From NCBI GenBank assembly GCA_050084985.1, contig JBITNC010000001.1:58714001-58778000 (forward strand): DNA of 64,000 nt. The letters are read 5' to 3'. Shown here piece after piece: positions 5,899-62,008 of this stretch. Position numbers and translations under genes: made by a program. The stretch comes from Nageia nagi. Taxonomy: Eukaryota; Plantae; Pinophyta. The notes below the pieces were generated by a model. It ran no database searches. It worked only from the letters and a program-made list of their open reading frames with translations, and was not told the origin of the DNA. How positions within the stretch are numbered: the stretch's first letter is position 1; each line of letters opens with the position of its first letter.

Positions 5899-5899
5899 C

Positions 5900-9528: not shown

Positions 9529-9556
9529 GCAAAGAAGGATTGAGAAAAAATAGCCC

Positions 9557-9568: not shown

Positions 9569-9569
9569 C

Positions 9570-25611: not shown

Positions 25612-27954
25612 GTAAGTTAAACAGGCCATTTTCGTTTATTTTTAAAACTTATTTCTTTGGTCGTTGTGTGGATCTCTATATCTAAAATATAGGTAGGGAT
25701 CTCATTTTTCATGTGTTAAATTTAAGCGGGGATTTCAATTTTATGCATCTGTATAGGTTTTCCTGATATTCCATGAAGAATTTCTTTGATATTTTTGTAG
25801 TATAAAACTCTCAATATTTGGTTTCTTTGATAATTTTGTAATATAAAACTCTCAATCTTTGTTTTGATTTCCTGTCAGAGATGTCACTGTTATGATCCAG
25901 TACCACTAAGCCTCAATATCACCACAATTGTTACTATTGCGCTCTGGCAGCTTCATCGTTACGCTCCATCTAAAATATCTCTGTCATTCAACCAAGGCCC
26001 AGTTGGTGTGTTCTAGACCTGATATGTAGGTGGTCTAAGTGAGGATTCCATTTTTCTAATGCAGATTTATTCTAATTGTGAAGAATTCAACATAAGACTA
26101 TATGTTGGTTTCCTGTGACTCTCTCAGGCCTTAATGCTATTAACTACATACTGGAATATATCCCATAACTTTCTGAAGATCAAATGTATTAATAAGGCCC
26201 GTAATAACCATTGTTCCCTGCATGGTATCTTCCCATCAATGGTAGAACATTCATGAACTGCACAGAAACATAATGAATCTAACCCCACGTACAGATAGAA
26301 GATTTATAGTGGGGAAAACATAATAGAAAATACTCACTTTCAAATTATGCAGGGTGTATTCACTGACACCTAACAATCTAGTACAAGGCAGTCAAGAGTA
26401 AAGGAAAATGATCTGCAATTCCAACATAGCAAGAACATCCAAGCACCTTCCATAGGGCTACCATCCTACTTCTAACTCCTAACACAACTTTCTAGTACCC
26501 CTTCTTTAGTCCGGTACTTGCACCTCTGTAGCAATGCTTTATAATAATAAAGTCTTAATATGGGTATATAGGATACAAACAACAGCAGCAAAAAACGTCT
26601 GGGTATGAATTCGAGTATAGGGAAGTTCAATGTTGGGTGCTTACTGTCAAGCATACACACTCCCATAGTGATGAATAATACCCCTAGCCAATGTGCGCAC
26701 CAGACTTGTATTCCCATAGTCATGACTCACAACGACAAAAACCCTCTTGAACACAATACACTTACCTTTAGAAAGACAGAAGCTATATATGTTTAGATAA
26801 ACATTTCCCAAGCATCAACATGGCTCCTGACAATTTTCAGGGGACACATCTTCCCTAAAAAAAAATTACCATCCCTGGAAACTTAGGGATGCCATGGGGG
26901 ACATTCTTTACTGTTCATCAATAATGTAGAATGTATTTAACCATTTTACTAGTTTTTGCATCATGACTTTGCTAGTTTTTGCATAACAGATATTACAAAT
27001 GATTATGTTTCATTTATTTTCATTGTTCTTACAGTTATACTTGCCATCCCCCAGCCGTTTCCTAAAATCAGGTCACCATCCATGAAAAGCTGTCTTCCTT
27101 TTCCTCAGTTACCCCGTCCCCCACTCCATTAGAACCTTGCTCCTATTATACTCCAATAAGCATGAGCATACTTATTTTACTGTACACCAAAAATTATGTA
27201 TGCAAAAAGTCCCTTCAATATAGTGCAAATATAGCTTAAAAGTTTAAAACATCTAAAATGATTCCTTTCCTTCCAAGGAGGAGTTACACTTGTGTGGTTT
27301 TTTTCCATGTCTTCTTGGTCTATCTTTCACCCCACACGTTTATGATGACGAATTGAGCTTCTAAAAAGGAAAAAAATGAGAAAATCTAGGATATATTCGG
27401 ACACTGCAGGTCCTATTTGACCACTTTAATGATGGAATATTACAATGAAGTGTAATTTATTTTGACATATTTTAGTGAAGAATATGTATATGCAAAGGTT
27501 ATGTTTGGAACACTACATGCCACTCAAACTGACAACTTATATCTTAGCATTTGGTTTCCACATAATGGCCTTGTATATTTTATAAGAAAAGTAGATTCTG
27601 TTTTGAAGTAGAATTCCCTTGCTCTCTCTTTAAAATGAATAAAACTTTGATAAGTTCATGATAAAAGAGATTACATTTACAAGGCTCATTCTACGGTGTT
27701 TGCTAATGTTTCAAACATAAATAATGTAATTAACCTCCTTTGTGTTATAGGATGTGTTGTGCCTTCCACAACACGCCCTAAATTTTTAGTAAATTTGGGG
27801 ACCCTCAAATTTTGATAAGAAGGAGTTGTTTAACAGGAGTGATCAAGTTGGCGGTGTGCTGAGACCAAAAAGACATTAGGGACTAGAATCAATGAAGGGT
27901 GATCAATGTTTGACCTTTGGGGGCAATGGATCGAATTTTGGCTAAGGCATGATT

Positions 27955-28830
27955 GAGTGCATGTCCGAGAGGAGACAATACCCACGTTCCCTCTTGGACT
28001 TGTGTTGGGTCTTTATAGGGTTCGGATGACTGTTCTGAGCAGCAAGAAGCAAATTTGACTAAGTCCAGAACGTCCCTTGCCTTGGTGCAAGTCAGAAGGA
28101 AGACAGACTCCTTGTCTCATTCGGGATGTGCACTCAACCCATACATGCTTTCCTGTGGCCCAAGACATCTCCCATGACTCACCTCGGACTTGCGCCAGCT
28201 TCTTAGGGGTTCCAAAAGATGTTTTTGAGCAACAATGATGAAATTCAACTAAGTCTGGAACATGTCTTCCTTGGGCATACGATCGGATGAGGATGACCTT
28301 CATGTCTCTCGGGGGACTTGCGCCGAACTAAAGAGCATATTTCGGGCACATGTCCAAGGCAGGACACCAGCCTTGTCCTCCCTAGGACTTGCGCTGGGCA
28401 CACCTGGCTAGTATCCTGGCACCGATGGACTTCAAAACACACCATGTGACCCCTAGGAGACCTGCGCCAAGCTTGTATGTCCTCTTCCAGTGCAAGTGCA
28501 CATGAAGAAAGGGGTGGTGACCTCTTTCAGACCTGCGCTAGCCTTCTAGGAGCATCAAGGGAGTATTTCGGGCAACAAAGGACGAAATTGGCTAAGTGTT
28601 GAGCATCATCCCTTTGGGCGCAAGTCGGGAAGGGCGCAGGTCGGGAAGAGGACAAACACCATGACCCCTTCCACATCTGCGCAAGGTTCACATCTCTCAT
28701 CCCTGGTGCAAGTGCAGCAGGAGACAACATGCTTGTCTCCCCTCACGCATACGCTATCCTTGTCTGCCCTCATCCCTAGTGCAAATTCGGACCAAGACAC
28801 CTCTTTTGGCCCTTAGAACACTTGTGCCAG
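27955..28830. repeat. Array of ~10 palindromic sites GCGCA-N39-TGCGC in LTR M1
   Basis: Left arms at 27957, 28085, 28275, 28346, 28419, 28490, 28634, 28706, 28779; spacer 39 bp; inner AAGACA-N7-TGTCTY. Confidence 0.85.
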
Positions 28831-29099
28831 CCTCCCAGGAGCCAACCGACTTAGAGTTGTGTACTCGAATGCATAGAAAACCACACAATCCCCAGGCACT
28901 TGAAGGCTTTTCCCTAGAAAACCCTAGAAATATCTAGAAAAGGGGGTAAACCAGCCTTCATTTCTACACACAACATTTCTCCCTCCTTGTGAACTCACAT
29001 GAGCATTGAAACTAAGACCCCTTGAAACCCTTCCAGAAGACAAGCCGAGGAATTCCTTATCTCCCTTCGCTAAGACACTCGAGGCACCACTTACGTCCA

Positions 29100-29599
29100 A
29101 TGGTAGAGATGAATTCTAAGACATAGGGGGAAGAGATCAAGTTGGAGGGGGCAGGACCATTGATGAGGCCCCGCCAAAGACAAAGCTCACCTTTGATCCC
29201 TCTTCTTCAATGAGCGCACTGGATGAGGATCCTAGCCAGAGGGTGAAGGATGAGTCCACAAAGAATCACCATGTGAGTCGGTTTGTCTTCAAGGTTAGCA
29301 ACATGTTGTTTGTGACTAGAGTCTTCGTAGACAAGGATCCGATGAAATCCCAAGACTTGGAGACTCAGACATTGAAGGCAAACATTGGTGAAGTCAAGAC
29401 CACTGGGCGAGCCAAGGAGCTAGAGGGGAGCCAGAAGAAGATGAGCCTTGAAGAGGAGATCATACTCCTTAAGCCACGACGTCCACAAGAGGGGAAGACC
29501 ACTCAAGAACAAGTGTGTCTGGAACTAGCAGGTGGAGATGACTCCAAGATAGATGCCACGGATGAAGAAGTAGCTGTTGGACTCATGAATGCCAGTTGA
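29100..29599 (+). pseudogene. Internally deleted version of the LTR-borne ORF (central part)
   Basis: FVTRVFVDKDP.KSQDLE..IGEVKTTG..EEEIILLKP aligns by eye with HIKTIIADKENPQCPQDLR..TGPIGLAG..IEELRKIKP of ORF 40392-40916; duplicate at 56827-57353. Confidence 0.6.
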
Positions 29600-29799
29600 T
29601 GGAAGCCGTTGCATCTTGGATGCAATATTTTAATTTTTATTTCATTTTTGCTTAAATCAGTATTTTGGATCTCAAACTTTATATATTTTGTTAAAGCCTT
29701 GTGATGGATGAGGAATTTGGTCCTACAAGTGTTGGACTTAATTTGGTGGTGCCATGTGGCACATTTTTTATTGGATCGACAATATTTTAATAATTTTAC

Positions 29800-29855
29800 A
29801 TTAGTTAGGGTTAGGGCAACACTTAGGGTTGCCTTGCAAACTATAAATAGCCCTA
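29800..29855 (+). promoter_or_regulatory. LTR promoter: TAGGGTT (telo-box-like) motifs plus TATA box
   Basis: TAGGGTTAGGGCAACACTTAGGGTTGCC..CTATAAATAGCCC (TATA 29842-29849); equivalents at 35926, 41724, 50353, 57595 and 58571 (minus strand). Confidence 0.7.
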
Positions 29856-30806
29856 GAGGGTTCATTTGTGCGAGAGAAGGAATTTTGAGAATGGAACTTT
29901 GAACATTTTGCAACTAGATGAGTAGAGTAATTCTTTCTATCTGGTACTCGTCTATTGTGAATGTGGCATGATCCTTGAAATGAAAATTGCACAACTCCAT
30001 TTCTTTGGTATTATGAACTTGGACATGTTATTTTAGTCATTGATATGTGTTACTTGAGATACTTGAAGCATTTCACAAACCTCTTGAGGGGTGGGTGAAA
30101 GAGTAGTTGAATATCTTTTGAAGTGTTGAATGTGATGCATAGTTGATGATTGTTCATAATATGCGACTAGACTTGTATGACTCTGAAAGTGGGTTCCTTT
30201 ATGAGGTCTAGCATGTGAACTTCATCCACATTGGAAGTGCCATCCTTGTCCCCTTAGACGCATGCTCCCTTTGGTAGACTATTCTTGTGGTTAGCTACTG
30301 CAAGTGGATGAATCCTTCTTCTAGACCCTTTGTGTAGTTTGCTAGAATGAAAGGATGTGTGGACGCATGGAACTCACAAGAAACCTGTAGGAACTTGACC
30401 TTTTAGACACTGTATTCATTGGTGGAGTCTGATGCAAAAGAGCTGAACTCATGTGCCTTAAGCTATCTCAATCTCCCCTCTTGTTTACTCTTATTTTACA
30501 CTTTTTTCTGTGGCTTTCGCACCCCCAATTTTATTTACTCTGTTTGAGAAACAACCCTTGTCTTGATACAAAGACAATCTCAGTCCTTGATTGACAAATT
30601 TTATTTGAGTTGTTACCAGCTTCAAACATCTTAACCAGTCTCCTGAGTCAATTCTTGCACACCCATTTCACGAGACCTTTGAGGTTGGAGTCCTCATAGT
30701 GGGTAGGGTTCACACCCTTCCACCTAGGTGTTGGTGTTTTCCGCAAACCCTGCAAGCCAATTTGCCTATACATCAGGGTAGGAAAGAAAAACAACCCAAC
30801 CTAAAT

Positions 30807-30823
30807 TGGCGTTAGAAGGAGGG
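30807..30823 (+). other. Primer binding site, tRNA-Asn
   Basis: TGGCGTTAGAAGGAGGG, one mismatch to the complement of the plant tRNA-Asn(GTT) 3' end CCCTCCTTCTAGCGCCA as recalled. Confidence 0.8.
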
Positions 30824-32229
30824 CCCAAATTGTATTTGTGTTTAGTTAGAGTTGTTTCTCTTTTGTTTTCCTTTTCACTTGGGTCCTTAAGCATATGCAT
30901 ACATCAAACAAGAGTCCAAGCCTTTCTCACCAAGATACCCCAAGCACACACTCTGAGTCTTGGAGATATATCCTTTGATGGTTTCTACAACCGTCATATT
31001 GTACAGTCATGGCGGCAACGACATGCTGGTTGGCAAGTATACCATAGAACTCTCAAGGACAACCATATGCTTTGCCTACATATGTACCACCTCATATAAG
31101 TTACTAGGCATATCTGAATTCAACCCCACCGCAACCACAAATAGGATCAATCACCAATTTGAATTAAGCTATACAATAACTACTGGTCCAAAGCTTGAAT
31201 ACCAACCATCAAATGTGATCAACACAACCGATGTTGCAAGTCCAACCTAACACATGGAGTCTCATGAACAGTCAAGTTGCACCAATACAAGCGGCTCACT
31301 CCATCCCCGAATATTCCAAAGGCCCTTCAAGCTCACCAAGTAGTCCTAGATCTGATACTTTCGAATGCTCTATTGAAAGAGTATGGAGAATGTGTTACGA
31401 CATAGGGAAGCATAGGTAGGACGAAGAATTGGATCAACTAAAAGATGCCTTGGAGAGATGAAGGTATGATCTAGAGCAAATGATGGACAAAAGATCTCAA
31501 CAAGGTTTCCATATACCTCCTCCATGGCCTACTCCAAACCAAGCAGCATGTAAAAGGGATCAGTCCCTAAGAGACAAAGCAACCCTTCCAATGTCATGTA
31601 CTACACGGTTCGACACAGGAACATCCAGGCCGTCATGAAGAAGAAGTTGCTCAAGAGTAGAAGAAAGAGCACTAGATATACAAGTTGTCTCTACACCTTC
31701 AAGGAAAAGTGTTTCGAGATTGCATAATAGATACCCGCCTTGATGGCAATGTGATAATGAGTATGGCTTGTCATGAGGCAGGATTCACTCCTTCGATCGA
31801 AGATTAGAATGAAGATGATGAGTCAATCATAGTGAGCTGTCTAAAGGGTGTTTGCATGCAAATTGTTGGATCAGAAGAGCAGTACTCCTTAGACTTCACC
31901 TTAATCAACCTGCTCGAGCATACAAGTCTGTTGTGCCCACACAACACACCCCAAGATGCAGCATTTTGGGGACCCAATTTTTGCAACAGAAATGAGTGAC
32001 ATTGCCTGGGCATGATCAACCTACAGCTAGTATGGAGACCCAGGGCAGCCAGATGATCAAAACAATGCACGAGTATGCCCTGAAATCATGAAGAGAGTTC
32101 AGCACAGCCAGTGGCCAAGTTAGGACCCGGTTTCAAGCGACATCTCATAGGATGGAGTTTTGGGTCATGATAGCGACTAGACAGTGGAGTTTTGAACGAA
32201 TGGCCATCAGGGTGAAAAAGGCGTTTTTT

Positions 32230-32885
32230 TTGCAAGTTTGAGCAACAAAGGTGCCAAGGTGATAAAATGACCGCTTTTTGTCAAGCATTGAGTCTAGGAG
32301 CAGTGAATAGAGTCAAGATGTTGAAAATATGTGTTTTTACACAATTTGAGCTCGGAAAAGGCAACTATGGCCAAAAGGAGCATTTTTATCAAGATTGAGC
32401 CTAGAGAATTAGAAAATGGTTAGTAGTGCGGAAAAACGCGTTTTGGTCTATTTTGAGCTTGGAATTGGTGAGTATGGTTAAAATGTGCATTTTTGCATGA
32501 TTTGATCTCGGAATGCTTGAAAATGACCAAAAATGCAAAGTTGAGCTCAAAGTGCTCGGAAATACCGAAAATGATCGTTTTTGCACATCTTGAGTTCAGA
32601 AAGGTTGAAAATGTAGACTTTGAACTCGAATTGCCGGAAATGTTGGAAATGATCATTTTTTCATTGCTTGAGCTCGAAATGGTCAAAATGCATACTTTTG
32701 AGCCCAAAAATGCTGGAAATGGCTAGAAATGCACCGTTTGGGCTCGTAAAAGAAGAGAAAAGCCGGGAATGAATAGTATAGCCCGGAATGGATCAGGAAA
32801 GCAAGTTTGAGCACGCCTTGGGGGGTAAAATAAAAAAATAAGTGTTTTGGCTGCCAAGAAGCTTTGGGTTGAGCTCGAAAAAATG
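32230..32885 (+). repeat. Cluster of ~14 degenerate TTGAGCTCG motifs in M2
   Basis: Examples at 32346, 32453, 32542, 32668, 32869, spaced 30-60 bp. Confidence 0.65.
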
Positions 32886-32939
32886 AGTTTTTTCAAAATG
32901 CTTAGAATGAAAACCCGAGAGAGAGGTGTGGTGCTAAAT

Positions 32940-34300
32940 GACAAATCAAGGCCACTTTGCTCTTGGAAATGTCGAAAAAATTCGAATTTTGACCCCTGAA
33001 AATCTAGGGGGAGTTTTGCAAGTTTTCCCTCACTTCACCAAATCTTGAAAATGGCCTATTGTCTTGAAAACTTGTGCCTACCTTTTGGGAGGCCTAGATT
33101 GATCTGAAAGTGGAATTTTTGAGCATGGGAGCGTGGACATCACAATTCTACATCAAATTGGTATTTCAAGTTTGCGATTTCAACAAGTTTTGCTCCCTCA
33201 AAAGTTGAAAATGAGCAAAAAAGAACAGCCAATAGGAATGCTTCAAATTTTCCAAAATTTAAAAAATGTCAAAATGAAAGTCCAAGAAGAGGTAGGGTGC
33301 CAAATCCAATTTTAGGCATCTTCCCTCTTGAAATTTTCAAAAAAAGTCAAAAAATACCCCTCAAAAAGTTAGGTGCTGGTTTTGCCTCTTTTCCTTCATT
33401 TGGCCAAATTTAGAAAATGGCCTATTCCTCCTAAAACCTGCGCCTATCCTTCTTGCACCCGAAAATTACAAAAAATGAGATTTTTGATCTCCATGGGGTA
33501 TAAGATGGAATTTCACACAAGTTTTATGATTTAAGTTTTCCAAAAAAATGAGATCTACTTCCTCAAATCATCAAAATTTGATCAGCCAATGAGAGAGCTC
33601 CAAAATTTTCCAAATTTTTCAAAGTTGGCCAAATCAAGAAAGAATAAAGAGCTAGGGTAGCAAATCCCAATGTGAGCAACATTGCCTTTTGCAATTTTGC
33701 AAAAAAATCAAATTTTGACCCTCAAAAACCTAGGCAGCAGTTTTGGGTGTTTTCCCTCATCTTCTCAAAGTTCCAAACTTGCTCAAATGTCCTAAAATTT
33801 GCGCCTAGCTTGGGAGTGCCTATTTTTTCTCAAAATCGAAATTTTTGACCCTAGGAGCATGGGAAATCCAATTTTGAACAATTTTCATGTTTTAAGTTTT
33901 TAGAAAAAAGTGGATCTACTCCTTCAAAATCACAAAATTTGGATCAGCCAATGGGAGAGCTTGAAATTTTTTCAAAATTGTCAAAATCAAAATTGGAGAG
34001 AAAGGTAGGGCGGAAAATCAAATTCTAAGCATCTTTGCCTCTTGCAAGATTTCAAAAAAACTTAAGATTTGTCTTCCAAAAAGTTAGGGGGGAGTTTTGG
34101 AAGTCTTGGGCCATTTCACCAAAGTTCCAAACATGCCCAAAACCTCCAAAACCTGCGCCTAGCCTCGTTGGACCCCAAAATTGCTCAAAAGTGACATTTA
34201 ATGCTTCCATGTGATAGGTGGTGTGATTCTACACCACTTTGGTCTCTCACTTGTGCAATTTGATTCATGAATACTCCCAAAAAACACCTTTTTGCTTTCA
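32940..34300. repeat. About four ~360-bp tandem units in M2, each with TAGG(CGC)-N63-GCGCCTA
   Basis: GCGCCT(A) right arms at 33074, 33440, 33801, 34155. Confidence 0.8.
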
Positions 34301-35500
34301 AGAAGAATTAAAGAGCTGAAAACTCAAGAAATTTGGATATTTTCTCAAAAATTCTCAAAATTTGAAATCCAAATTTGAAGTGTGGAGGTTGAAGAGCACC
34401 CTAGACCCATCATCTTTGCTTCCAAGAGCCCCCACGTTGAATCAAATCTGCTCCCTCCATATTTAGGTGAAGGTTTTGCCTTATTTCCCCACTTTGGAGC
34501 ACTTTCCCAATGTTGGGCATGAGAGGGAAAAGCCAAAAATGCAAAATTTTATACTTAGGGTTGATGAGGTGTTGACATGTGGCACCTTTTGACCCCCTAA
34601 GTCTATAAATACACCCATATTCCCTCCATTTCACTCAGTACTCCCATTTTACACCCTTATGTTGCCAAAATTTTTGAGAATTGGAGACTTGAAGTAAGGA
34701 AGAAAGCCCATTTTCACCCTTGGAGCATGATTTGAACACTTAGCATCTTTGTCATTCATCCAAACTTCATTATACTCTAAGATCCAAACATTCTCCATCC
34801 CACATGAACTCCATTTTTCAAGTTTTGAGGATTTTTTATACTAAAAGCCCATTTTCCAAACCCTCAAACATTTGAAAAACTATTTTTCCAGTTTCCAAGT
34901 TTGATCACTTTTTTGGATACCCTTTATCCTTATGATCAACTTTTATTTTCAACAAAAAAAATACATATGATCCAAGATCTAAGTGTGTAAAATCCTCATT
35001 TCTTCACAAAAAATTCAAAAAAATCCAGAAAATTTTCCAAAAACTCCAAAAAGTGTTTTTCAAGTCCGTTTTGACCATTTCAAAGTTTAAAACACCTTCC
35101 CCATTCATTCCCCATCCATCTAAGGTGTTTAAACTTGATTTTGACACCATTTGGCAAGTTTACCAAATTTCACCCTTTTTTTATGTTGGAAAAGTCAACT
35201 TTTTGAGCTAAAATTTGAAAATTCTCCAAAAGTCCCAAATTTTTGAGCTAAAATTTGAAAATTCTCCAAAAGTCCCAAATTTTTGCCAAGGCATTTCCCC
35301 TTGAGTCAATTACCTTTGTGTTAACCCAAACAATTCAAAAGGCCTTGAACCTTGCAAATATTGGCATTTTCTATGATGGCACACTTAGAGTAAACTCCAA
35401 AAATCCAAATTTTTCAAAATCACTCTCTGCTTGCCCAGAAAGTGCCACAAGCTTGCTAGGACTCTTCTAACTCTGTGTTGTCCACCTAAACAAGGACAAG

Positions 35501-35741
35501 ATGGCATTAGTTGCACAGAACATCAAAAACAAGGAAACAAATGAAAGGAGTTAGACTTGCCGCATGGTGCAAGGAAATGGTCAAAACCAATAAGGTCATC
35601 CTAGAGCACTTGCTACCAAATGAAGGAATCCTCCAAACTATCCATCGGGCCATTCGGAATGTAAAAACGTTCATGGGAGATGATTTTGAAACTAAAATCG
35701 TGACAAATGTACAAGCTATCTTCCCACCATCGCTAGAATAG
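35501..35741 (+). pseudogene. Deletion derivative of the LTR-borne ORF (C-terminal ~60 codons)
   Basis: AWCKEM..LLPNEGI...IRNVKTFMGDDFET matches VWCNEM..LLTNEGI...IKNRETFIGANFET at the end of the minus-strand ORF (58779-58950); upstream TATAAATA at 34604. Confidence 0.75.
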
Positions 35742-36885
35742 AAAGAGGTCTATTTTGGCAAATTTTTGATATGTAGGCCAAATTTGGCTAACTTAGTGGA
35801 TTTCCACTAAGTCGAATTGTAATCTCAATTAGCTTGTAAATAGTTGTTAATGTTGCAATTAGAAATTAAGGTTTTGAAGCTCATTTCTAGGGTTTCAAAA
35901 GTCACTCTTAGGGTTTCTAAAAGTCTATAAGTAAGAGACTAAGGGTCTCATTTTTGTAAGGATTTCATTTTGAAGCAAACACTTCATTCTTGAAGAGAGA
36001 ACTTTTGAGAATTGAGAGCATATTGTAAATCTTGGCACCTCTTTTTTCAAATCTAATACAAAGTGTTTATGTAAAGACTTGGAGTTTGATATTATTCATA
36101 TTGGTGTTATAGATTGAATCTTTGAGGACATTCATAGTTGGTTTGTGCACTTTCGTTTTATTCCTTTGAAAACTTTCGAGCTTTAGGGAAGTTATCTCTG
36201 AACTACTTTAAGAAGTGCTTGAAGCTTACCTTTGCTTGTTGCTTGATCCTTAACATACAAGTTGATTGGGTATTCTGTGTCAGTTTCTACTTTCATGACA
36301 TCTTGTTAGGTCGTTCATCCAAAACCGTGATCCTTTCACTTTGAAAATCTTCCATTTCCATTCAGTTGCATCGATCTTATTCATAGAGCACCAACAATTG
36401 GCATTCCTTCCCGCTCCTCTTTGAAGTAATTCGAACGTTGAGTTGTTTGCTTGCAAGGTTGGATGAATTGGATGAAAAGTCCTTAACCGATTCGGAAGAG
36501 ATCAACTCTTAGACACTTTCCCATCAGTGAACCTCAAATTCATATCCGACCAAGTATCCTTTCTTTCTCCAAGGTGTTTTCCTTCACCTTTTTCTATATT
36601 TTCTTTATTCTTTCAAACCCAAATACAATCGTTAAGTCTGTTGTGATTAAAATACAACTCAAACACACTATTTTATATACTTTGTTTTATTGTCATCTCG
36701 GCCTACCCAAGTTGCATCGTCAAGACCCAAATTCATAGATTACTTCTCATAGTTCATAGCCTTTCCCTTCGTTAGAGTTAGTCATAATTAAATAGAAATT
36801 GCAAAATCCTTAAAATGGCCAAGTTTGGAAGGGGTAAAAGTTGAGCCGAAAGCTGATCAAGTCAAATTGGGCATTCCAAAGGGTT

Positions 36886-37850
36886 GGCACATGCTTCAAA
36901 AAGACAAAATCTTGTCTTTTTGAACCATGCGACTAGGCCAAGGGGTGGTCTAGGCAAGAAGGAAGGTTCGAAAATGAAGTTTGGGCATTTACAAGCCTAG
37001 AGCATGCCTCCAAGAGACAAAAATTTGACTTTCCTGGGCATGCACTAGATATAGGAAGCATATTGGAGTAGAAGAAGGCATAAAAATCCTAAGGCAAAGA
37101 CACTAGGAGGCTGGTGCATGCTTTGAAAAGACAAAATCTTGTCTTTTTGAACCATGCGATTTGGCCAGGAGGACAAGTCAAGCAAGTTTGAAGACCGGAA
37201 TTTGAGCCTAAGGCATCCAGGAGGCTGGTGTGTGCCTCAAAAAGGCAAAATCTTGTCTTTTTGAACCATGCGCCAATCTTTGAAGGGCTCCCAGTTCGAC
37301 CCAAAATGAAAATTTGACAAGCCGTAGATCCGGGAAACTCAAGACCAACTCAAGCATACCTAGGGGGGCTGGCGCATGATCTCAAAAGACAAATTCTTGA
37401 CTTTTTGAAGCATGTGCCAAGCCAAGAAGCCTCCAAGATTCGAAGAACATGAAAATCTGGCTAAGGCATGAGCATTCGAAAATCAAATTTCAGAAAATAA
37501 GCCAATTGGAGGTTGGTGCATGCTTCAAAAAGGCAAAATCTTATCTTTTTGAACCATGCAACCAAGCTAGATGGGCAGGCAAGGCTGACGCATGCCTCAA
37601 AAAGTCACCATCTTGACTTTTGGAAACATGCACCAAGCCTACAAGTTGCCCAATTTCGAATGAAGTATCAAAATCACTAAGTCCAGCCGACCAGAAGACC
37701 CAAAATCAGGAAAAATCAGGTTAATGGGTGAGTTGGGTGATCAAAGCAAGCAAGTGCACAGGCAGGAGACCCACCGTTGGGAGCATACTCCTTCCTAGGG
37801 CTGGCGCATGGTTTAAAAAGTCACTTTTTTGTCTTTTTTCCATTGCAACA
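36886..37850. repeat. Array of 8 palindromic sites GGCGCA-N36-TGCGCC in M3
   Basis: Consensus GCATGCTTCAAAAAGACA-AAATCT-TGTCTTTTTGAACCATGC starting about 36889, 37002, 37116, 37230, 37374, 37518, 37590, 37806. Confidence 0.9.
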
Positions 37851-37964
37851 AGCTAAGATGGCTTGCTAGACCCCAACATCTGGGCATAAGAGGCTTTGCA
37901 TGAGTTTTTGGGCCGGCACACATCTCTAGGTTGGCCAGATGGAGGGTCATGATAGGTTTAATAG

Positions 37965-38012
37965 AAACCCTAGCCGACTAGGGCAAGTTGGAAGCCAAAT
38001 CAGCTATAAATA
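37965..38012 (+). promoter_or_regulatory. Putative promoter of the LTR-borne ORF in M3
   Basis: AAACCCTAG at 37965 and TATAAATA at 38005-38012, ~220 bp before ATG 38233. Confidence 0.6.
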
Positions 38013-38232
38013 CAGGCTTGGGGACCTCATTTTCTCAAATTCAAAAATTGCTCCTCTCTACCCTTGCGCCAAGATAGTAGCAAATTATAGATTTTTATGC
38101 CCAAACATCATCACTTATACATTCTAGGGCTTGCGCAAGCATTTAGGAAGCTAGCCATTTCAACGTGGGGGTCATCTTCACTTGGAAACCCACGCAGCAT
38201 TCTTGGAGAGCCAAGTTGCAATTGAAAACACC

Positions 38233-41200
38233 ATGACTTCCTCCAAAGGCAATTCGGCTCTTGACTTTGCTAGAGACCTCAAGCGGCTGAAACAGGTTTG
38301 CATCATCTCCATTCGTGAGAGACAACAAGCCCTTCCCTAAGGGGCTAGATTCTCGAGGAATGGTTTTGCCACCATCGGAGATACAAATTGGCAAAACGTT
38401 GACCCTACACAAATGAGGGAGAACACTCATGGTCTTCTGATTGCTGACTTGAAGCAGGACATCATCCATGGTCTTCTGATTGCTGACTTGAAGCAGGACA
38501 TCATCTTCTTCTCCGGACTCTCCACTTGCACATTAGTCCCATTCATAGCTCTATTTCTGGAATTGTGCATGGAGGTCGGCCACCACTAGCAGAAGGGGGA
38601 GAGAATCCTTCGAGACATTAAGGGGGACATCATTATGGACTTTCGCCCTGAAGCTATCAACGTAGCATTCCACTGGACCTTTGAAGAAGTTGAATATGAT
38701 GAGGCTATGTCATTAGCTTGTTACCAGGAGACCGCTAGGGCAGCCATCGTTATTAAGAGTTGGATGTACGACGAACATCATGGTTGGAAGGGGAATGCGC
38801 TCATCAATGCTCCTCGTGCCAACTTTTACCCAGCAGTCGAGTTGATGATTCTTATGCTTTCCAAAGTTCTCGGGAAAGAAGATGCTTCGAAGTTCAGAAA
38901 GGAGTTCTTTGGGTTCATTCTCGAGATTGCTAGAGGAAGGAGAATCAGGTGGAGCAAGGTGTTGAGTGACTTGATAGCGGATCAATTGTCATCCATTGGT
39001 ACAACTTGCAAATTCTACCTCAACTCACACTTGATGTACTTGTTTTTTCATGGCAAATATAGGGCTATAACGAAGGGTGAGACGGGTTTGATTGAGAAAG
39101 GGACTTACTCCATTTGGAAATGCTACCCAAATGGAAGTTAGAGAGACGGTGGGACAGTTTCATGATGAAAAATGATGGATGGGAGTATGAGATATACAAG
39201 GAGCTTAAGGGAGAAATCACAATTACATGAATCTCCAATTCTACTCAAGATGCTTTGAAGAAGCATGGCGACTTCTTCCTCCATCACCAACACTTCCCCT
39301 GTATTCACATATATGGATCAGCTGTTCAGCCCTACATTTGCCAAGGTTCGTAAGTAACAAAATTCTGTTAATGGAGATGATGAGGCAGTTGGCCTTCCTG
39401 CATGAACAGGTGTGGCAGAAGAAATCGGCTACTTTGAATCTACCAATCGTTGTGGGAGAATATCAGTGTAAATTCAGGTCGGATGTGGAAACCATGGACC
39501 AAGAGTTGGCCAAATTTAAATTCAGGAAGATTCCTGCCACTGACCACTATGATCCGGATCACAGGATACACTTGTTCTTCACAAAGGAAAGGAAGAAGTC
39601 TTATGAACATAAGCCACGTGTAGACGAGGAGCCTTTCCGGAACATCAGTAATGAGGTAGAGATTAAGAGAATAAGAGAAAGGATTCATAGGGACGCGATC
39701 AATGAGCAGCACCGTGTGGAAGCCACAATTAGTAAGAGACTCTCATAGAACAGGGGAAGCAAACCTCAAGAGTCTGCTTCTAGGATCATGCAGTTCCCTC
39801 CAGTCAGTGAGATAGCTATCAGGCAGTATGCGTCTATGCATGGCAACAACCCAGTTGAGCGAGTCGTGCAACAAGTACAAGCCACCATTGATGAACATGA
39901 TGTAAGGGAGCTAGAGCGTGTGGCTACTGATAAGGTAGTAAGGCGTGTGAGAAATAGATGTCAAGATCCCACTCCACCACCTAGACCACCTAGAAACAAC
40001 TTAGCAATAACATCACTTGTTGTTCCACCATTTGGATCGTCAGCCTTCAATCCCTCTTACAGGTCAGACAAAAACCAGGAGGGGGAGATTGGAGTGTCAG
40101 AAGATGACCCAAGAGCAGAATGTAGCCCAAAATGAGGAGATTCCAAACGCACAAGAACAAGATGAATCCGTAGAGATATTGGCACAAGTCCATAAGACAG
40201 TAGTGTCAGAGCCATCTGCAAGAAAAGGTAGGGAGTAGGTATTCGAGACGGTGCAGAAGAGGATTAGACTTAAGAGAACTCCATAATCACGAGCTACAGT
40301 CACCTCAGGAGAAAATGATGAGATTGACCAAGGAGAGGAGAGACCTTTGAAGAGAATGAAGAAGGATGCTGCTACTATTTAGGAGGCCATTGTGGAAACT
40401 TATCAACCATCACCCACGAATGAATGGGGTGTTAACATGGAGGAGTGTCTTGATGTGTTCAATTTGGACGTCGGGGAGGAATTTGGAGGAGGGGAAAATA
40501 ATGACCACGTAGGAGAAAGCTCCACCTGTCCAGGAAAATCCCAGACGTATGTACATCTGACCCATAATGCCATACACATCAAGACCATTATAGCTGATAA
40601 GGAGAATCCACAATGCCCACAAGATCTCAGACAGATTAACCAGATCATTAACACAGGGCCGATCGGTCTGGCTGGTCGGAAGCATGCAATCATTTCCAAT
40701 GCTGAGGCCATCATCAAAGATGGTATGATGAAAGACAAGGAGATTAAGAGCCTTAGGGAGGAGTTAGCTGAACAGAAGAAGCTGACAAGACAGTTAGAAA
40801 CGGCTAAGGTACCCATAGAAGAGCTCCGAAAGATCAAGCCACTTAAGGAGGGTATGATTGCAGTGAAACAAAAGCGTATAGATGAGGTCTTGGTAGCAGT
40901 TCAGCAGTTCATTTGAACACTAGAAAGGGTAGCATTAGAACAGCAAGAGCTCAAGGATATCATTATGGAGAGAACCGCTTTCTCAAGATCTTAGATTCTA
41001 GACGACCCATGATCATGCAGTTCGAGACAACACGGAATCGGAAACTAGAGGATGTGAAATTCTGTGAAGAATATTGGTTTTATCTAGGCCTAGTTAATCA
41101 AATAACCACTCGATTCCAAGAGGTATAGAAGGATGCTCGGAAGCTCAATGACAAGGTAAACACTTCTCTTGAGCAAATGGAGTTCCAGGTGAAGTTCCTC

Positions 41201-41501
41201 GATGATGACGTAGGTATCCGAGACAAAGACCTGGTGGTGGCAGAATTGAGACACTTCCTCCACAGTCTGATTATGACTGAAGATATTAATACCTTTTAGA
41301 CTGGTAAATCACTTGGACCATTTGCTCAAAGCTCATGCATGGGAGAGAGATATGATGAGGATCATGGATAAGGTGGATCGCTACATGGTCACGAACCAGC
41401 CAAAGCTATTGGAGATGCTACATGGACGAGAGCTCATAGCCAAGTTCCTGGATGATGATTTTGAAGGGCGTGTAGAGGCGTTGGGCCCATCAACCGCCTA
41501 G
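38233..41501 (+). pseudogene. LTR-borne ORF (~1,080 codons, disrupted), unknown protein; conserved N-terminal domain, acidic linker, coiled-coil-like C-terminus
   Basis: Consecutive ORF pieces 38635-41501 collinear with two other copies: IGDTNW, FLELCMEVG, FRKEFFGF, IRWSKVLSD..QL, KFYLNS, LPRFVSNKILLME, GRKHAII. Confidence 0.85.
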
Positions 41502-42974
41502 TCAAAATTTTTGCTATCTTTAATTTAATAGGTTTCATAATTATTTTTAGAGATTTTTATTTATTTGTTAATAAATTTCCAAGTTTGTGATGGATGAGGA
41601 TTTGCTCACACAAACTTGGAAGACATCTTGTAATGCCATGTGGTATTTTTTTTATTAGACCACGTTTTATTTTCTCGTAAATTGCAATTAGGGTTAGGGC
41701 AACATTTAGGGTTGCTCTAAAACTATATATAGCCCATTTGGGCTAATTTGAAAGGAGATTAGACATTTGTGCAAATTGGGACACTTATATAAAGTTTTCA
41801 AACTCGCAAGTTTCCCTTTTCTCAAATTGTGATATAAATTTCAAGTAATTTAAGGGAGCATGTTCTTATTTGGACTATGGATGTCATTGTATTTTATTTC
41901 TCCATGCTATCTTAAGTGTTTGGATCAATTTTGTAAATCTTCTAAAAGGTGGACAAAAGAGTGCTTGTAGATCTTTTGAAACATTTTAAGTGGTGTGTGT
42001 GTGGTGTAACATTCTATAGTTTGCACATTGTATTAGTGGCTTCCGAGAGAACTCGCATATGTCGTTTAACTTAGGAACTTCATTCCATGTTTGATGTCTT
42101 ACCCCATCCTATCTTACCTTTCCACCGCTTTAGCTTCAAGCTCCCCTTGTCGAGGTATTCATGTTGTTGCGTCACAATGTCTGATCGGGAATGCGTGGAA
42201 CCTAGATCAAACTCGTGCGAGTCTAGTCTTCGAAATTCACACTAGTTGGTGAGAACATTGCCCTAGAGCCCCATTCACATATCACCATCTCTTCACAAAC
42301 CTTTTCTTTATTTTTCTATTTTTTGCGTGGCTTTCGCAACAAACTCCTTTTATTTTTTCATTTTCGTTGAGAAATAACCTTACCGGGATTAGAGACCCTT
42401 CGAGTCCTTGATTAACAAATTTCATTTGAGTTGGAAATAGCTTTAAACATCTCCACCTAGTCACCTGAGTGAACCCCTGCATCCTTCACTTTTTGGCCTT
42501 TGAGGTAAACAATCCTCATAGCGGGTAGGGGTAACGCCTTACCACTTAGGTGTTGGAGTCTTTCCACTAGGCTTTGCGATACCATTTGCCAATTTGGAAG
42601 GGTAGGAAGGAAAAAGTCCCCAAGAAAGTCCACACACAAAGGTTTTGAATAAACTCTATACATCAAAGAATAAAACAACATTGGTTAACAAACTACTACC
42701 TCTCATTCTATTCCATTGAGGCTGATTCCAAAGAGGGATACCGCACTTTCTTTTATCTATCCCTAGACCAGAAACACGCTTGGCGGACATACCTTAAATG
42801 TCGTAACATTAGGTCGTTGAGTAAGTTGTTTCGACAAGAGCCTTGGAGGTATAAAGTCCTTTTCAAATGGAGGAATTGGTAATGCATTCCCGACTATGTT
42901 GCTTGGGATCTCCTAAGTTCCGCATGCGATTTTCAGAGGGTCTCTGCGGGAAAGAAAAGCATCCCAACAAAGTC

Positions 42975-44358: not shown

Positions 44359-44704
44359 TGTTGATGCCTCAACACACCCCTTTCTCTTTTCAACAAAAAG
44401 ATGGGGACCCTCAGTCTAGAAAGCACAGTGGAAGCCTTGGGAGATTTGACCCAAGGAGCATTTCGGGAAGCAATGAGAAGAAAGTTGTTCAGAAGAGCCC
44501 GAAGTGCAACTTTAAAATGGAGCCTACTTACAACAAAGCAAAACCCTTTCGAAGCTCTCATCTACATAGACGAAGGTGAAATCCAAATCATGATCAACTA
44601 GGCAGAGTTGCTAAGTAGTCATGGGAATTTGTATTAAATCTTCATCTAGTGCATGGCATCTCGCATCTCAAAAAGTCATAAAAAAATTGGCCAAGTCCAA
44701 GGTT

Positions 44705-46402
44705 GGTCACATGGTTTAGGAAAGACACTCATCCATCTTTGAGGAATGGTGCAACCACCCTTCAAGCAGATTTCAGCCCTTAAAAATGACTAAGTCCTCA
44801 AAATTTTTCATCTTAAGGGTGTTCGCATAATTTCAAAAAGTTGCATTAACATCCTTCAAAAATCATACGACCACCCCCTCTTGAAGAAGCAAAGTTGAAA
44901 ACAAGGAAAATGGGTCATTTGGAAGGTGTTTGCATGGTTTTAAATAGTTACAAATCCATCTTTCTCCAAACATGTGACCACCCCTCTTGAATGGTTCGGG
45001 AGCACAAAATTGGCTAAGTGTTCAAAATTCCTCTTTAAAGGGCATTCGCACAATTCAAAAAAGTTGCAAATCCATCTTTTTATAATCTCCTGACCACCCT
45101 CACTTGAAAGTTGCACTTGCCTTAGCCACATTCGATCTTCACCTTGGCCGAACAGACGAGGACGCCTAGTATATTTGTTCACTTAGTTTGCAGATCCAAG
45201 GGTGTTCCCACGGTTTCAAAAAGTTACCTTTTCATCTTTCAAAAATTATGCGACCACCCTCCTTTTAGGATTTTGGGCTCTAAAATGGCTAAGTGTTGAG
45301 TTAAGGGGCTCCCTAGAGGTGTTCGCATGATTTCCAAATGTTGCAAAATCATCTTTGGCAAAACATGCGACCACCCCTCCAGACGTTGAGCATGCATCAA
45401 GGGAGCTTGTCTCAAGCTCATTCGACCTCCACTCTAACCAGTCTAGTGTAGACACCTATCAAGCAAGAGACTATGAAGCAAGAACAAGCACTTATTTGCA
45501 CCAAGTCAGACTTGGCATCCAAAGTGGTCGCACGGTTCAGGAAAGTTAGGATTGCATCTTTTGCAAAATGCTCGACCACCCCCTTGCACTTCCAAAAATT
45601 GGCTAAGTGTTAGCCCAAAGTACTTATGGAGTGTTCGCATGATTTTGGCAAGTCATAATGGCATCTTTTTGAAGACATGCGACCACCTCTTCTTTGCATC
45701 CAGCTTCAATTCAAGTGATCGCATGGTCTTCAAAAGTCACCTTTGCATCTTTTGCAGGATGTGTGATCACCCTCTTAGTTACATTTTGGGACCAAGTTTG
45801 GCACCTCAACTTGTTCATCCCTGGTCGCACGTTCTCACAAAGTTACAATTGCATCATTTTCAGAGCAAGCGACCACTCTCCTCTTGCATGGAAAAAGACA
45901 CTTGTTGAAAAACTTGTTTTCTCTCCAGACGTTTCCACTTGGCAATTTTGAAGCACTTATAAAAGAAAGAAGAGGGGGTGACTTAGTTGGATTTGGTACT
46001 TCATTACTGGTCGCACGGTTTTGTCAAGTCACATCTCCATCATCCTAAAAGTGTGTGACCACCTTCTTCTTGCATTAACATTGATACCTCATGTTTTGTT
46101 GCACCTACTGCACCTTGCATTAAGTCATCTTTTGCATTTGGTCGCGTGGTCCCTAGAAGATAGATGTCCATCATTCTAAATGGACGCGACCACCCTTTTG
46201 CATTAATCAAGTAAAATTTTGTTGCATGGCCATTTGAGTAGCAGTTGCATTTTGGTCCTAAGTGGGAAAATGCATACATTAAATCTTTTTGTTTTGTCTT
46301 AGTTAGTCAAACCTTCCATTTTGTCATGTCGCATGAAGTCAACTTTTTGTGGTCGCATCATTTGCCCAAGATAGGAAAGCAACATTTCGATTTGGTGTGA
46401 CT
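44705..46402. repeat. Array of 13 palindromic sites GGTCGCA-N38-TGCGACC in M4
   Basis: Left arms near 44705, 44821, 44928, 45044, 45204, 45321, 45526, 45633, 45717, 45823, 46009, 46140, 46351; spacer counted as 38 bp in each. Confidence 0.92.
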
Positions 46403-46662
46403 AGGTCCATGAGCATTTGCATTCAGAAGGGGGGCCCACCAGCTGGCCGACATAGACGCATTCTTACATTAAAATCATATCATAAACAACATTGCATGTG
46501 AGAAAGGCCGACCACCTTGTTGTCACAAACATTCATTGTCCAAGTCCATTGCATCCATACAAAGGCATACAGATTTGCCAGGCATTGCATCCTTCTTGCA
46601 CCATGTCCGACATCTGTCAAAGTCCAGTCGTTACTAACTTGGTCTGTTTGTGCAGATTTTGA

Positions 46663-49600
46663 ATGGAGAAGATTAATTCTAGGTTGGGAAAAACCAGAGA
46701 GCTACAATTGGCTAGGCTGACTGATCGTAGTCAGATAGAGTTTATGAAGGAAAACCCTGAGGATCCCTTGAAACAAGCTAAATTCAAGAATAGTTTCATC
46801 AACATTGGGATACCAACTGGTCACATACTGACCTAATTCTGACACTCCAAGCAATTGGGGAGTTAGATAAGGTTCAGATCCTAAAAGAAGTGGTATGCAT
46901 GTCCAGAATAGCTATTGCCACTCTAATTCTCTTTGCTGTTCCTTTTCCCGAGCTATGCTATGAAGTAGGCAGGCATGCCAACTTCAAAGATCGAGCCCTT
47001 TACGACATCGATGGCAATAAGATCCTCGATTTCTCTCCACAGGGGATTGAGGAAGCCTTCAAATGGGGTAATGAGGGGATTGTTTATACGGAGAAAGATT
47101 CCTTGGAATACTATGAGAAATCTCCATGAGCCGTAGATCTCATCAGAAACTGGTTCAAGAATGAGAGCAAAGGATTTACAGGGAATAAGTTGCTGAATGC
47201 AAAAAGGTAACATTTCTACCCCAAAGTGCCCAGGATCATCAGCATGTTGTCCAGGGTCACTAGCAAAGAGGATGGCTTCAAATTCCAGAGGGAGTTTACC
47301 GGGTTCATTGCTGTGATAGGGAATTAGCAGAAAATCAGGTGGAGTAGAGTGATAAGTGATTCCCTCTTGTCCCAACTGGCCCACATTGGCTCCTCGAAGA
47401 AATTTTATATGAATTCCTATCTAGTTTTTCTCCTCCTCAATGGCAATAACAAAAAATTGGCCCACGTAGACGTTGAGATCTTGAACAATTCGGAGAAACC
47501 TGTATGGAGAGCCAATGGAATATCAAATTTACAAGGGGATAAAGGAGAGCAATGGTGAAGACGATATCCGATTCAGCTGTTGAGGCTATTCGGGGGAATG
47601 CAAATTACTTCCTGGAAGACTCCACACACCTACATTCGGGTCTATGGCTCTGAAGTCAGGCCATATCTCTTGCCCAAGTACGCCAACAATTGCCTCATCC
47701 TCATGGAATTTTGCAGGCAATTATTATTTTTGCATGAGAATGTATGGAAAAAGAAGAATGCTACAATGAATCTCCCCATATCAATGGGGGAATATACTTG
47801 CTCAACTTGGTAGGAGGCCAAGGAGATGGGCAATGAATTGTCTTACTATCATTTCAGTGAGGAGGCAACCTTCCACTACGATCTTGAAGGAAGGATTCAG
47901 TGTTTCTATAAACGGGGATTTAGAAATCTTGTAATCTATGAGCACCAACCTCTTGGAGACAAGGAGAGATATAGGAACAAGAGGGAGGATAAACAGATTC
48001 AGGAGGTTCACTAGATCCTAGTAGCTAGGGGATGAATTGATAGAAGAATTCAAAGCCTGAATGATCCTCGAGCCATCTCAGCTGATAAATCCACTTCCTT
48101 CTTGAGAGTGAGGAAACATAAGGGACGAATAGGAGAGCACGCCACTTTGGATGGGGTTAAGTCTGGGATTCACACCATTGTCAAAGAGATCACCAAAGAT
48201 GTAGCTATCATGAAAGAAACAGGGTATCCATATTTCCTGCTCCAACAACTTTAAGATTCCATCTTGAGGGACATCCCCATGATGCCTCTTGTACCTGTCC
48301 AGATTGAGAATCCTTTGGCTCTCTTGAACCTCTTGACACTCGTCGAGGAACACACAATAAACAAATTCCCAGAGCCCATTGAGGCTAAAACCCAGGAGAA
48401 TGTTCTCATTGCAAACCAACATGCAAACCCTAACCCTCAAGCTCATCTTCCGATTCTGAGACATCCTCTAGTTCGCATGAATCACGTTCAAAAGGAGAGA
48501 CTGAAAAGGAGCACGAGGATGGCGAAGAATCGTACACCAAAATAGAGGATACCCAAATTGTGGACATAGAAGGAGAATTTGAGACAGAGGAGATTGGCGA
48601 GGCTTTGCCTACAGGGTTGACATCTGCGAAGCAGGTTGCTTCTTCAGAATCTGCCACTCCATGAAGGAAGAGAAGGTTGTCCCTCAGGAAGGAGACTTCT
48701 CGAACGACCCCTAGCAAGCCTTCAAAGCTAAGCAAAACTTCTGCAAATAGAGATGGGGGAGATGAGGAAGATAAAGGTGAAAGTGAGGAGCAAAGAAAGA
48801 AAAGAAAGCAACAAGAACATGGTAGTTACAGGTTATCGAGAAGTAAGGAGAAACCAGCTGAAGCAAAGAGCCAACAGTTGAGAATTGAAGAAATCCGTAG
48901 GGAGTCTGTTCCAACAAATATAGACACCACTTTGGCCAATGTTGCAACTAGCTCAGGACCACATAAAGAATATGACTTTGATATCGATGCGATCATCAAA
49001 GACCTTCAGATAAGCTATAAGAGTGATGATGATGAATCAAGCCAAAGGAGGGAAAATATGTCAGCAAACTACCTGATCGAAGAAATAGATACTTTTGTGT
49101 CGATAAAAAATGATAAAGTGATCATTAACAAATGTTATTAATTACAATGTGGATGAGATGGTCCATACCGAGGAGTTCAAAGTAAAGAAGATTGGGTGGG
49201 TTGGACGCAAGCACACTATTAATTACAATGTGGATGAGATGGTCAGATAAGGGATTGTGAGGGAGAACACGGTCAAGGAACTAAAGAAGGATTTGGATCG
49301 GAAGAATAAGTTGGTGAAAGAGATACTGCCAAGATGACCATTGAAGATATTAAAGTGCGTACCTCACCAAACATCGGCATAACTTCAACCAAGGAGACTT
49401 TGATTAACGTAGTAATGAAGGTGGTCAATGAGCTCTCGCTCTGGCTAGTCTTCCTTACAGACGAACAAAAGATAGAGGAGAATACGACAGCGACTATCTC
49501 CCAGCTACTGCATGACTTTCAAAATCATGAGCAGGCTATCTAAAACATCAAAAGATCATCCGAAGGACAGCCTAGTCTAGTGTATACTGTCAGGAATTTA

Positions 49601-50049
49601 CCTATCACCCACATTGTTTAAGGTTCGCTGTAGGGGAATGTGCCAATCTCATGCAGGCAAGGATCGAATTGATGTTCACCTTGACTTTTCAGATGAACTA
49701 GTTCGTGCAGCCAATCAGCTTTATAAATGAAAATGGAAGTGCGAGTTGAGGTGAGCTCATGGCACAAGAAGTTCGAAACGTTATAAGGGAGCTCATCTTC
49801 ATGAAGGATGTGAATTTGCTGAGAGTGCTAACCCACATTGAGAATCAACAAAATTTGGCCATCTTGAAATTTCAAATGGAGGCCACCTCTTAGTTCATCC
49901 TTGACTTCCACAACAAAAAGGATGAGGAGTTGTCGGGTGCGCTCATTGTAGGACTCGCCAAGGCCAAGGCCTTCTTTGATGACAAGTCTCACGGGATTCC
50001 AGAGGACATCTTTGCTGCTGCCCACGCTACCGGTCCTACAGATGAATGA
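46663..50049 (+). pseudogene. LTR-borne ORF (~1,130 codons, disrupted), M4 copy
   Basis: IGDTNWSH, PFPELCYEVGRH, ILDFSPQGIEEAF, KKFYMNSYL, YIRVYGS..PYLLPKY; preceded by branch point CTAAC and acceptor TGCAG (46651-46655). Confidence 0.85.
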
Positions 50050-51964
50050 TTGGATAAATGCATAGTTTTATTTTCTGTTAAATTTTTTTAAAATTTTGCA
50101 TTGTGATGGATGAGTTTTTGCTCCCACAGTTGCGAAAAAGACTTTTAATTTGATAGATAGATAAAATTTGATATGATCGGGTGTGATCAGATACTGATGT
50201 GACATTGATCGATGTTGTTTAACTGCAGTTTCTCTTTTTGTTGATGGTTTTTGTGTGTTTCGATATAGTATTAGGGTTGCATGGTTGTTTAGGGAAACTC
50301 TATAATTAATGTTAGGGCAATGCTTCATTTAATGAAGTTGTTAGACGCATACTATAAGTAGCCCTAATCGGGTCATTTTTGAAATATACGAAGATAGATA
50401 CATGGAGAAGCACATATAGATGGATATGCAGAGATAGAGATATTGTAATCTCCTCCATGAGCTGAATGCAAATCTTCTGAGGATCTTACTTTTTGGAGTT
50501 GAGTTTTCCATAGCATGTATGTATGATTTATCATTTTGGGAAACTTTGTTATTAAAGCAAGTGTGATTGTTTATTTCATGGGATTGTAGATGCGCATATG
50601 GCATGAAATAAGTGTCGTATCATTTATGCATTTACAAGCATTTTCTTTGAAAGTCCAACATTTTAGGGAAAGATGATTGAATTCTTTTCTTAAATGGATG
50701 AATGATTGTTTCTGCAATCTGCATAAAGTCATAATATTTTGGAATTACTATGCTTTTATGATATTTGATTGGTTTTATCTGCTGAAAATGGACAACTGAG
50801 TGATTCACACATTTCACCTTCACATTTTCATATCGACCACTGCCCCATGCTCTCGCTTGGGAAAGATTTGGACCAAGTCATTTCCTCCCTTGCTTGATAA
50901 CTCCAGCAAAAATTCCTAATAAATCCGAAAGTAAAGCCCCAAACCCTTTACGGTGGTAAACAACCATCACTTATCCCACTATCAAATACCAAACCTACTT
51001 CATTCTTTACTTCATATCTCGACACTTCAAATACCATCATCCTTTTGCTTCAAGTACCATCATGTAGGCAACAAAAAATTGTGCAAGAAAGCCCAATAGG
51101 TCTGTAATTACTTTGTAAGTTAATCACCTCGAGCACATTCTTACTTGGGCCACTTCTGTGATAAAAGAACACCAATCACCAGGCCATCCGTTTAAAGTCA
51201 CGCGAAGCCCCTTTGAGCTTTGAAGATGCATAAACCTTGGGGTTAAAGTCCTTTCAAGTGGAGGTAAGTAACACTACCTCACTCATGGTGTTGTTTCCCA
51301 TAGGGGGGGGGGGAACAAAATCACGTCAATAGATGGCATCCTGCACGATGAGATGGCTATCGATAGAAATCCTTTACTCTAACTTGCTAGAAGCTCATAT
51401 AAATTCATGAGAAGGATTTTTGTGAAGTTGAGTCCCTCATATGCACACGGTGTATTCTCGTGGGCATATGTAAGATTCCTGTTACAATCCCCTATCTATC
51501 CTAGAAGCTTGTTACATGGGGATGAAAATACACTCTCTACTCATTTCTGTGAAGACCAAAACAAGATCTTCGACCTTGGAATAAGAGAGATCTCTGTGTG
51601 GTAGTTTAGTGTACAGAGTAGATTAGTGTCAAAAATAAAAGAAAAGAAAAGAAGAGAACATTGAAGCCTATCCATTGGAACTTGTCATGAGAGTGACTGA
51701 GCTCAGGGACTTGTCCTTTTCTCCAAAGATTACACTTGGAACAAACACTTTGGATGAATATAATGTCCCTGGACCTGGATCGATAACGCAGGTGTCCTCA
51801 TTCGAATGACTAGTGAGAATTCACTCATTCTAATGAAACCGATGATGCAGCGTGAGTGACATGTTGACAGAGGCTCATACACTAAGGACGATGCATGTCA
51901 CTATGCATCTGGATTTTGTTTTCTAACTTTGTTTTGTTTTGTTTTTTTTTAGCTATAGTTTGTC

Positions 51965-61700: not shown

Positions 61701-62008
61701 TCATGTTGTAGTGTTTGGCTACCTCAAGGCACAATTCTAGAAATGGAGCTGTATATGGGATCATAGAGGCTTCAACGATCCTGGATTGAGTAAGTGTGTC
61801 GTTGAACAACTGTTCATGTGGGATCCTGGCCGTCTTTTCTAATGACTTGATGGGGTCAATGTGTGCCCAATCTGTGTCTCTGATCTATCCAAGGCTGTCT
61901 ACTAGCATAGCTGTAGGGAAGACAATCTTTCCTCTTTTCTCAAGGGTGATCACATTTTCTTTCATGAGTCTCCATCTGGAGCTCCTTGTTCTTCTTAGCA
62001 ATACTCAT
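58779..62008 (-). pseudogene. LTR-borne ORF (~1,075 codons, disrupted), M5 copy
   Basis: IRDTDWAH, PFLELCLEVAKHY, ILDFTMEGIESAF, IRWRKVIS..QL, YIRVYGS..PYRLPRY, LARKHAIV; upstream TATA at 62742-62749. Confidence 0.85.

Follow-up and report, generated by a model that had tools for sequence, protein, structure and literature searches.

This analysis concerns a 64,000-nucleotide stretch of the Nageia nagi genome (assembly GCA_050084985.1, contig JBITNC010000001.1, positions 58,714,001 to 58,778,000; here called the window), in which a 5,987-bp unit on the plus strand, U (36639..42625), is likely a solo long terminal repeat (LTR) and holds the remnant of a long open reading frame (ORF). A gene lying inside the LTR is the probable architecture of U. 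The fuller proposal, that U is the solo LTR of a giant-LTR plant retrotransposon with an accessory gene in its U3 region and a sequence-specific role like that of the VANC proteins, is an even call.

The boundaries of U were precise. It begins with TGTTG (36639) and ends with CAAGA (42625) between exact AAGTC copies on the plus strand (36634..36638 and 42626..42630), as an earlier sequence-only reading had reported, and the terminal TG...GA of this copy is TG...CA in others, with CA at 42624-42625. Contigs from all four runs examined, of 23 listed, skipped U exactly and kept a single AAGTC, with joints running from 36633/36635 to 42626/42629 and omitting 5,992-5,993 bases, five letters fitting either side (runs X1 and X2). 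Since these contigs derive from other copies of the host repeat, they prove insertion with duplication and not an orthologous empty site. Other U-family copies share the 3' terminus: their pieces stop at 42623, and four of four loose ends (run X2) start with CA. Terminal inverted repeats of U-type units amount to only about 5 bp.

No gag or pol Pfam family matched in any of the six frames of U, and the same type of scan did match integrase families in a decayed element at 2900-5899. Neither of the two primer-binding site (PBS) motifs tried matched inside U, its two ends were not similar to each other (score 25, against a shuffled mean of 24 and maximum of 31), and no internal LTR-like self-repeat was found. 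Of six purine runs of at least 13 bases, the ORF holds five and the 3' tip the sixth, and none lies at an LTR boundary. The reported lack of PBS, polypurine tract (PPT), gag and pol was thus borne out, for the PBS as far as two motifs reach.

The ORF (38233..41501, plus strand) is broken and would encode a globular N-terminal domain, an acidic low-complexity middle and a coiled-coil-like C-terminal part. From the ATG to the stop codon it counts 1,089 codons including a perfect in-frame 39-bp duplication (38428..38505, plus strand), or about 1,076 net, in agreement with the ~1,080-codon remnant first described; the duplication is absent from L001, one of two related loci outside the window (L001 and L002, of 5.0 and 5.7 kb), and is skipped by a contig of run X3. 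The long ORF has been conserved by purifying selection: the ratio of nonsynonymous to synonymous substitution (dN/dS) was 0.159 between U and L001 (527 codons) and 0.163 between L002 and a further copy in the window, N (728 codons). Simulated neutral evolution under the local transition bias yielded 0.61-0.64, and the lowest of 180 values was 0.48. The U copy itself is a dead pseudogene, with 10 in-frame stops and five frame changes, of which the first three are backed by homologues and the last two were read from the translation. L001 covers four of these stops and shares none of them, so the decay is specific to this copy. L002 stays open for 758 codons and then meets a stop, so no fully intact close copy was seen. 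The suggestion that solo-LTR formation leaves an expressible gene behind therefore fails for U and is plausible for young copies, because promoter and ORF stay together in them. In L001, the U-like segment is preceded by a truncated integrase-like fragment (1-265) that breaks off mid-domain, and is interrupted downstream by LINE-like sequence (2425-4952), both identified by eye.

Two TATA-like boxes frame the gene on the plus strand. The first (38004..38012) lies 229 bp before the ATG and is a putative promoter element conserved in L001, N and L002; it is also present in B, the LTR into which U is inserted, and the pattern found none ahead of the ORF of the paralogue M4. The second (41723..41732), the likely LTR promoter, lies 903 bp from the 3' end of U, a spacing of 927-1,047 bp in M4, N, B and a further LTR, A. 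The ORF was said to lie upstream of the LTR TATA box, which holds for the box at 41723 and not for the one at 38004.

Evidence that the gene is inside an LTR came from comparison within the window. LTR A (27755..30801, plus strand, 3.05 kb), which served as reference, is followed at 30807 by a PBS-like TGGCG, a call made on its position and on a presumed tRNA-Asn-type motif; no tRNA gene for comparison was present in the window. The last 1.04 kb of U, only its 3' sixth, was 60.6% identical to LTR A up to the tip (E 2e-52), matching the 3' 1.1 kb of A. A block after the stop codon (41585..41600, plus strand) is common to U, M4, LTR A and its twin A'. It is this alignment to the tip of A, together with the shared spacing of the second TATA-like box and the post-stop block, that argues for a gene-bearing LTR.

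The same layout recurred in M4 and N. M4 (44359..51331, plus strand, 6,973 bp) is a solo-type unit whose duplication agrees in four of five letters (AATGG/GATGG) and whose broken ORF (46663-50050) is homologous to that of U (37% identity over 247 amino acids, E 5e-44), which upheld the earlier statement that it repeats the arrangement. N (57652..64000, minus strand), not noticed before, has its 3' end at 57652, a broken ORF from 62008 to about 58780 and 183-bp repeats upstream, its 5' end lying beyond the window. The N-terminal domains of the three ORFs are 34-39% identical. One layout in three families so deeply diverged (~35% amino-acid identity) can hardly be the product of repeated deletion. 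The placement of the ORF inside the LTR was thus supported indirectly, by this layout, the 3' homology to LTR A and the missing internal LTR-like self-repeat; LTR A itself, on the other side, carries only an unrelated short ORF. The lineage is likely Ty3/gypsy of the Athila/Tat type, an assignment based on how large the LTRs are and on the PBS-like site that follows A (PMC6317226).

Upstream of the gene, a ~50-bp module that is self-complementary and has arms of the TGG(T/C)GCATG type is repeated eight times in U (36885..37852, plus strand); it is specific to the U family. The module cores differ by family, M4 having about 13 inverted pairs and L002 and N TAGGCGC-type inverted pairs. Pairs at fixed spacing exceeded 40 of 40 shuffles in M4 and L002, and were not in excess in U, N, A and B, where 12, 7, 4 and 5 of the 40 shuffles, respectively, reached the observed value. 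The L002 motif is found again in N and in B, which lacks the ORF, and is almost absent from other places. The model for the mechanism proposed below is the binding of VANC proteins to short motifs, specific to each family, that stand in tandem repeats (PMC5735166).

A fold model of the N-terminal domain of the paralogue L002 weakly suggests that this domain may fold like VANC21, a DNA-binding anti-silencing protein; the match (PDB 9LNK) was weak, covered the whole domain at 8% identity and was returned by one aligner only. PDB sequence searches, Foldseek against the PDB and viral structures gave no match at E 0.001. An exportin-like list from the ESM Atlas was rejected for its low recognition score, and a further ESM Atlas search gave no usable match. 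A profile search collected 126 relatives of the ORF, including a distant open protein of 1,010 amino acids, and among the Pfam matches of 109 members at E 0.05 none was to PMD PF10536, DUF1985, Transposase_28, Transposase_32 or ATHILA ORF1; nor did any transposase or integrase family in Pfam match the long ORF. Word-index homologue searches returned none among longer proteins, two with the L002 query and three with P0091, the only name being "hypothetical protein", and no related loci or patterns appeared in the viral contig or genome contig collections searched. One distant relative, P0136, lies on a 23.5-kb contig that may show the entire element. The ORF protein has basic patches resembling nuclear localisation signals, and it shows no clear transmembrane helix such as an env-like ORF would have: the maximum 19-residue hydropathy in the 758-residue L002 protein was 1.31, and in the U protein, scanned up to the last ~55 codons, one weak window (2.08) fell inside the folded domain.

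The likeness to VANC21 of Arabidopsis VANDAL21 has limits. VANDAL elements are Mutator-like DNA transposons of dicots (PDB 9LNK; PMC5735166), whereas U has a 5-bp duplication, TG/CA ends and no transposase match, and its protein has no DUF1985 match. VANC targets stand in tandem repeats and the motifs described here in inverted pairs, and binding or demethylation is here a prediction.

The mechanism I propose would run as follows. U3 would hold a complete accessory gene, composed of the inverted-repeat array, a TATA-like box and the ~1,080-codon ORF. Genomic RNA would start at the second TATA-like box of the 5' LTR and include a single ORF copy, within the U3 of the 3' LTR. Copying of U3 to both ends during reverse transcription would give each new element two copies of the gene, and LTR-LTR recombination would leave one copy with its promoter. 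The protein, made from the first TATA-like box and probably oligomeric through its coiled coil, would attach to its family's inverted motifs and act in trans to hold the LTRs of that family open or transcribed. The broader idea, put forward tentatively and with somewhat more doubt than belief, is that the LTRs of an old and widespread lineage of plant retrotransposons took in a VANC-like gene for anti-silencing together with its target motifs. If true, each insertion and each solo LTR would be a self-contained feedback unit in which protein and motif evolve together within each family, and relatives without the ORF, B for example, would retain the motif and rely on protein supplied in trans. 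LTR recombination that removes elements would then not remove their anti-silencing defence. It would mean that an LTR retrotransposon counters silencing in a sequence-specific way, and it would offer a reason why giant LTRs persist in giga-genomes.

Several observations weigh against a gene inside the LTR. Contig searches recovered no full element; the search for a PBS behind other U-family ends met contigs that break at the 3' terminus, where the four loose ends are heterogeneous (agreement 0.59); in LTR A the slot of the long ORF holds no more than a short ORF remnant unrelated to it; and no PPT precedes A'. One alternative, unlikely though serious, keeps the gene in the LTR and makes its protein an RNA chaperone, a particle-assembly factor or an integration-targeting factor, the arrays being host transcription-factor sites or slippage products. 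The VANC21 match is weak, from one aligner, and a shared fold shows no function; moreover, family-specific repeats with no known function are common in Retand elements (PMC11963269), and PMD-type folds also serve host silencing (PMC5418596). A role at chromatin is favoured instead by three points: the only structural match, extending over the whole domain, is to a DNA-binding protein of a transposon; the arrays of motifs stand immediately upstream of the gene and vary from family to family; and the protein combines basic NLS-like patches with no clear membrane helix.

The ORF could also be an ordinary internal 3' extra ORF, with U, M4 and N as deletion or recombination derivatives in which the ORF is left between the 5' tip of one LTR and the 3' part of the other. 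This is improbable: an identical double deletion would have had to occur in families that share only about 35% identity, U has neither a PBS motif nor end-to-end self-similarity, and none of the 15 joints listed (there being 138 further joints) skips the ORF. It gains from the internal position of published plant extra ORFs (PMC7264820; PMC6317226), from the related LTRs A and B being shorter and without the long ORF, and from L001, where a U-like promoter abuts the integrase-like fragment, though that fragment ends mid-domain. Equally doubtful is that the units are LTR-derived and self-moving, either as single-repeat elements mobilised in trans by integrase or in the manner of Revolver, and were never paired around gag-pol. 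The window contains both ends of three large units (U, M4 and B), all of them unpaired and with their own duplications, and the rye Revolver, an LTR-like unit with an ORF, is called self-standing by its authors (PMC2851119). Nevertheless, the ORF matches no transposase or integrase family, the terminal inverted repeats are minute, and a related LTR has both a PBS-like site after it and a twin. In a cypress genome the ratio of solo LTRs to intact elements is 2.8:1 (preprint), so that copies without a partner are no surprise.

Genes within an LTR have a precedent in MMTV-type sag and, arguably, in Revolver. The sag protein is much smaller than the U ORF protein and is an unrelated, immune-active protein of animal retroviruses, whereas that of U is a predicted nuclear factor of a plant retrotransposon. 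Betaretroviral sag survives in solo LTRs, as proposed for U, and in one study no other retroviral gene was present on 490 of 527 sag contigs (PMC4667437). Revolver and the LARD (Sukkula-type) LTRs of Triticeae resemble U as multi-kb plant units related to giant LTRs at both ends, with promoter and ORF; the Revolver ORF has 139 amino acids in three exons, its authors class it as non-LTR, and in 2010 they stated that no LTR encoding a gene had ever been identified (PMC2851119). The PMD-coiled-coil extra ORFs of Tat/Ogre elements and the TRP28/Athila ORFs are, like that of U, large accessory ORFs with a globular domain and a coiled coil (PMC4408406, PMC6317226, PMC11963269, PMC7264820), and they share with it nearby tandem repeats, a promoter of their own (Grande gene23) and hosts with LTRs of up to about 5 kb. 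They are described as internal (antisense at the 3' end in gymnosperm TatIII), whereas the U ORF lies within the repeat and is read in the direction of the LTR promoter, with no Pfam match to their families. Searches of open-access main texts on plant LTR ORFs, conifer elements, retrotransposon anti-silencing and VANC listed no description of a plant LTR with such a gene; the element tables of PMC6317226 may include some.

LTRs among 13,566 plant elements reach roughly 5 kb (PMC6317226), which U-type LTRs of 6-7 kb exceed. LTRs are usually treated as non-coding and solo-LTR formation as a clean purge, and a selected 3.3-kb gene in a 6-7-kb LTR breaks both assumptions in this lineage. The function of extra ORFs in plant retrotransposons is a long-open question, and here each protein family adjoins its own motif array.

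The surroundings of U proved to be a nest of insertions. U sits in the 3' part of solo LTR B (31929..42969, plus strand; about 5.05 kb without U, TG...CA, flanked by AAGTC at 31924-31928 and 42970-42974), which has two TATA-like boxes and no ORF of at least 150 amino acids. An initial end of B at 36397 was rejected, as B continues past U to 42969. B (31929-36633, 42631-42969) carries the N-family motif without the long ORF and is a candidate non-coding relative that could use an N-type protein in trans. AAGTC is the target duplication of both U and B, and at a frequency of ~1.2 per kb this double use is either chance, at odds of roughly 1 in 800, or points to a target preference. A TGG after M4 was rejected as a PBS, being part of the target duplication across which the host frame reads on, and branch-point and acceptor-like signals at 46627-46655, just upstream of the M4 ATG, suggest an intron in the 5' untranslated region.

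Solo LTR B, M4, a hAT element and N are all nested into element A, which consists of LTR A, its PBS-like site, about 3.1 kb of decayed internal sequence and the twin A' (55510..57651, plus strand, 87.5% identical), whose 5' tip abuts the hAT element and whose 3' part is cut by N. The internal region (30807-31923, 42975-44353, 51337-51960) has a decayed protease-like stretch, seen by eye, an acidic frame and no Pfam match, and element A is likely non-autonomous. LTRs A (29120-29599) and A' (56809-57353) contain the short ORF remnant before the conserved block, in the slot where the U ORF ends; it was rejected as part of the long ORF (hhalign probability 0.1%), and its dN/dS of 0.49 falls just at the lower limit of neutral values. 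The hAT-type transposon (about 51963-55510) matched DUF659 and, weakly, zf-BED in 53840-54952, with no clear 8-bp duplication.

Elsewhere in the window, a minus-strand tandem element (2266-10173) has three 605-bp LTRs, a 3.63-kb unit, remnants of SH3_Tf2-1 and integrase, no reverse transcriptase match and what is presumably a Met-type PBS, and a 27-bp tandem array of 20 copies occupies 18602-19131. An exon at 25458-25613, ending in GT and without a Pfam match, is presumably of the SYP3/Sed5 syntaxin type, which suggests that the nested retrotransposons probably lie inside a giant intron.
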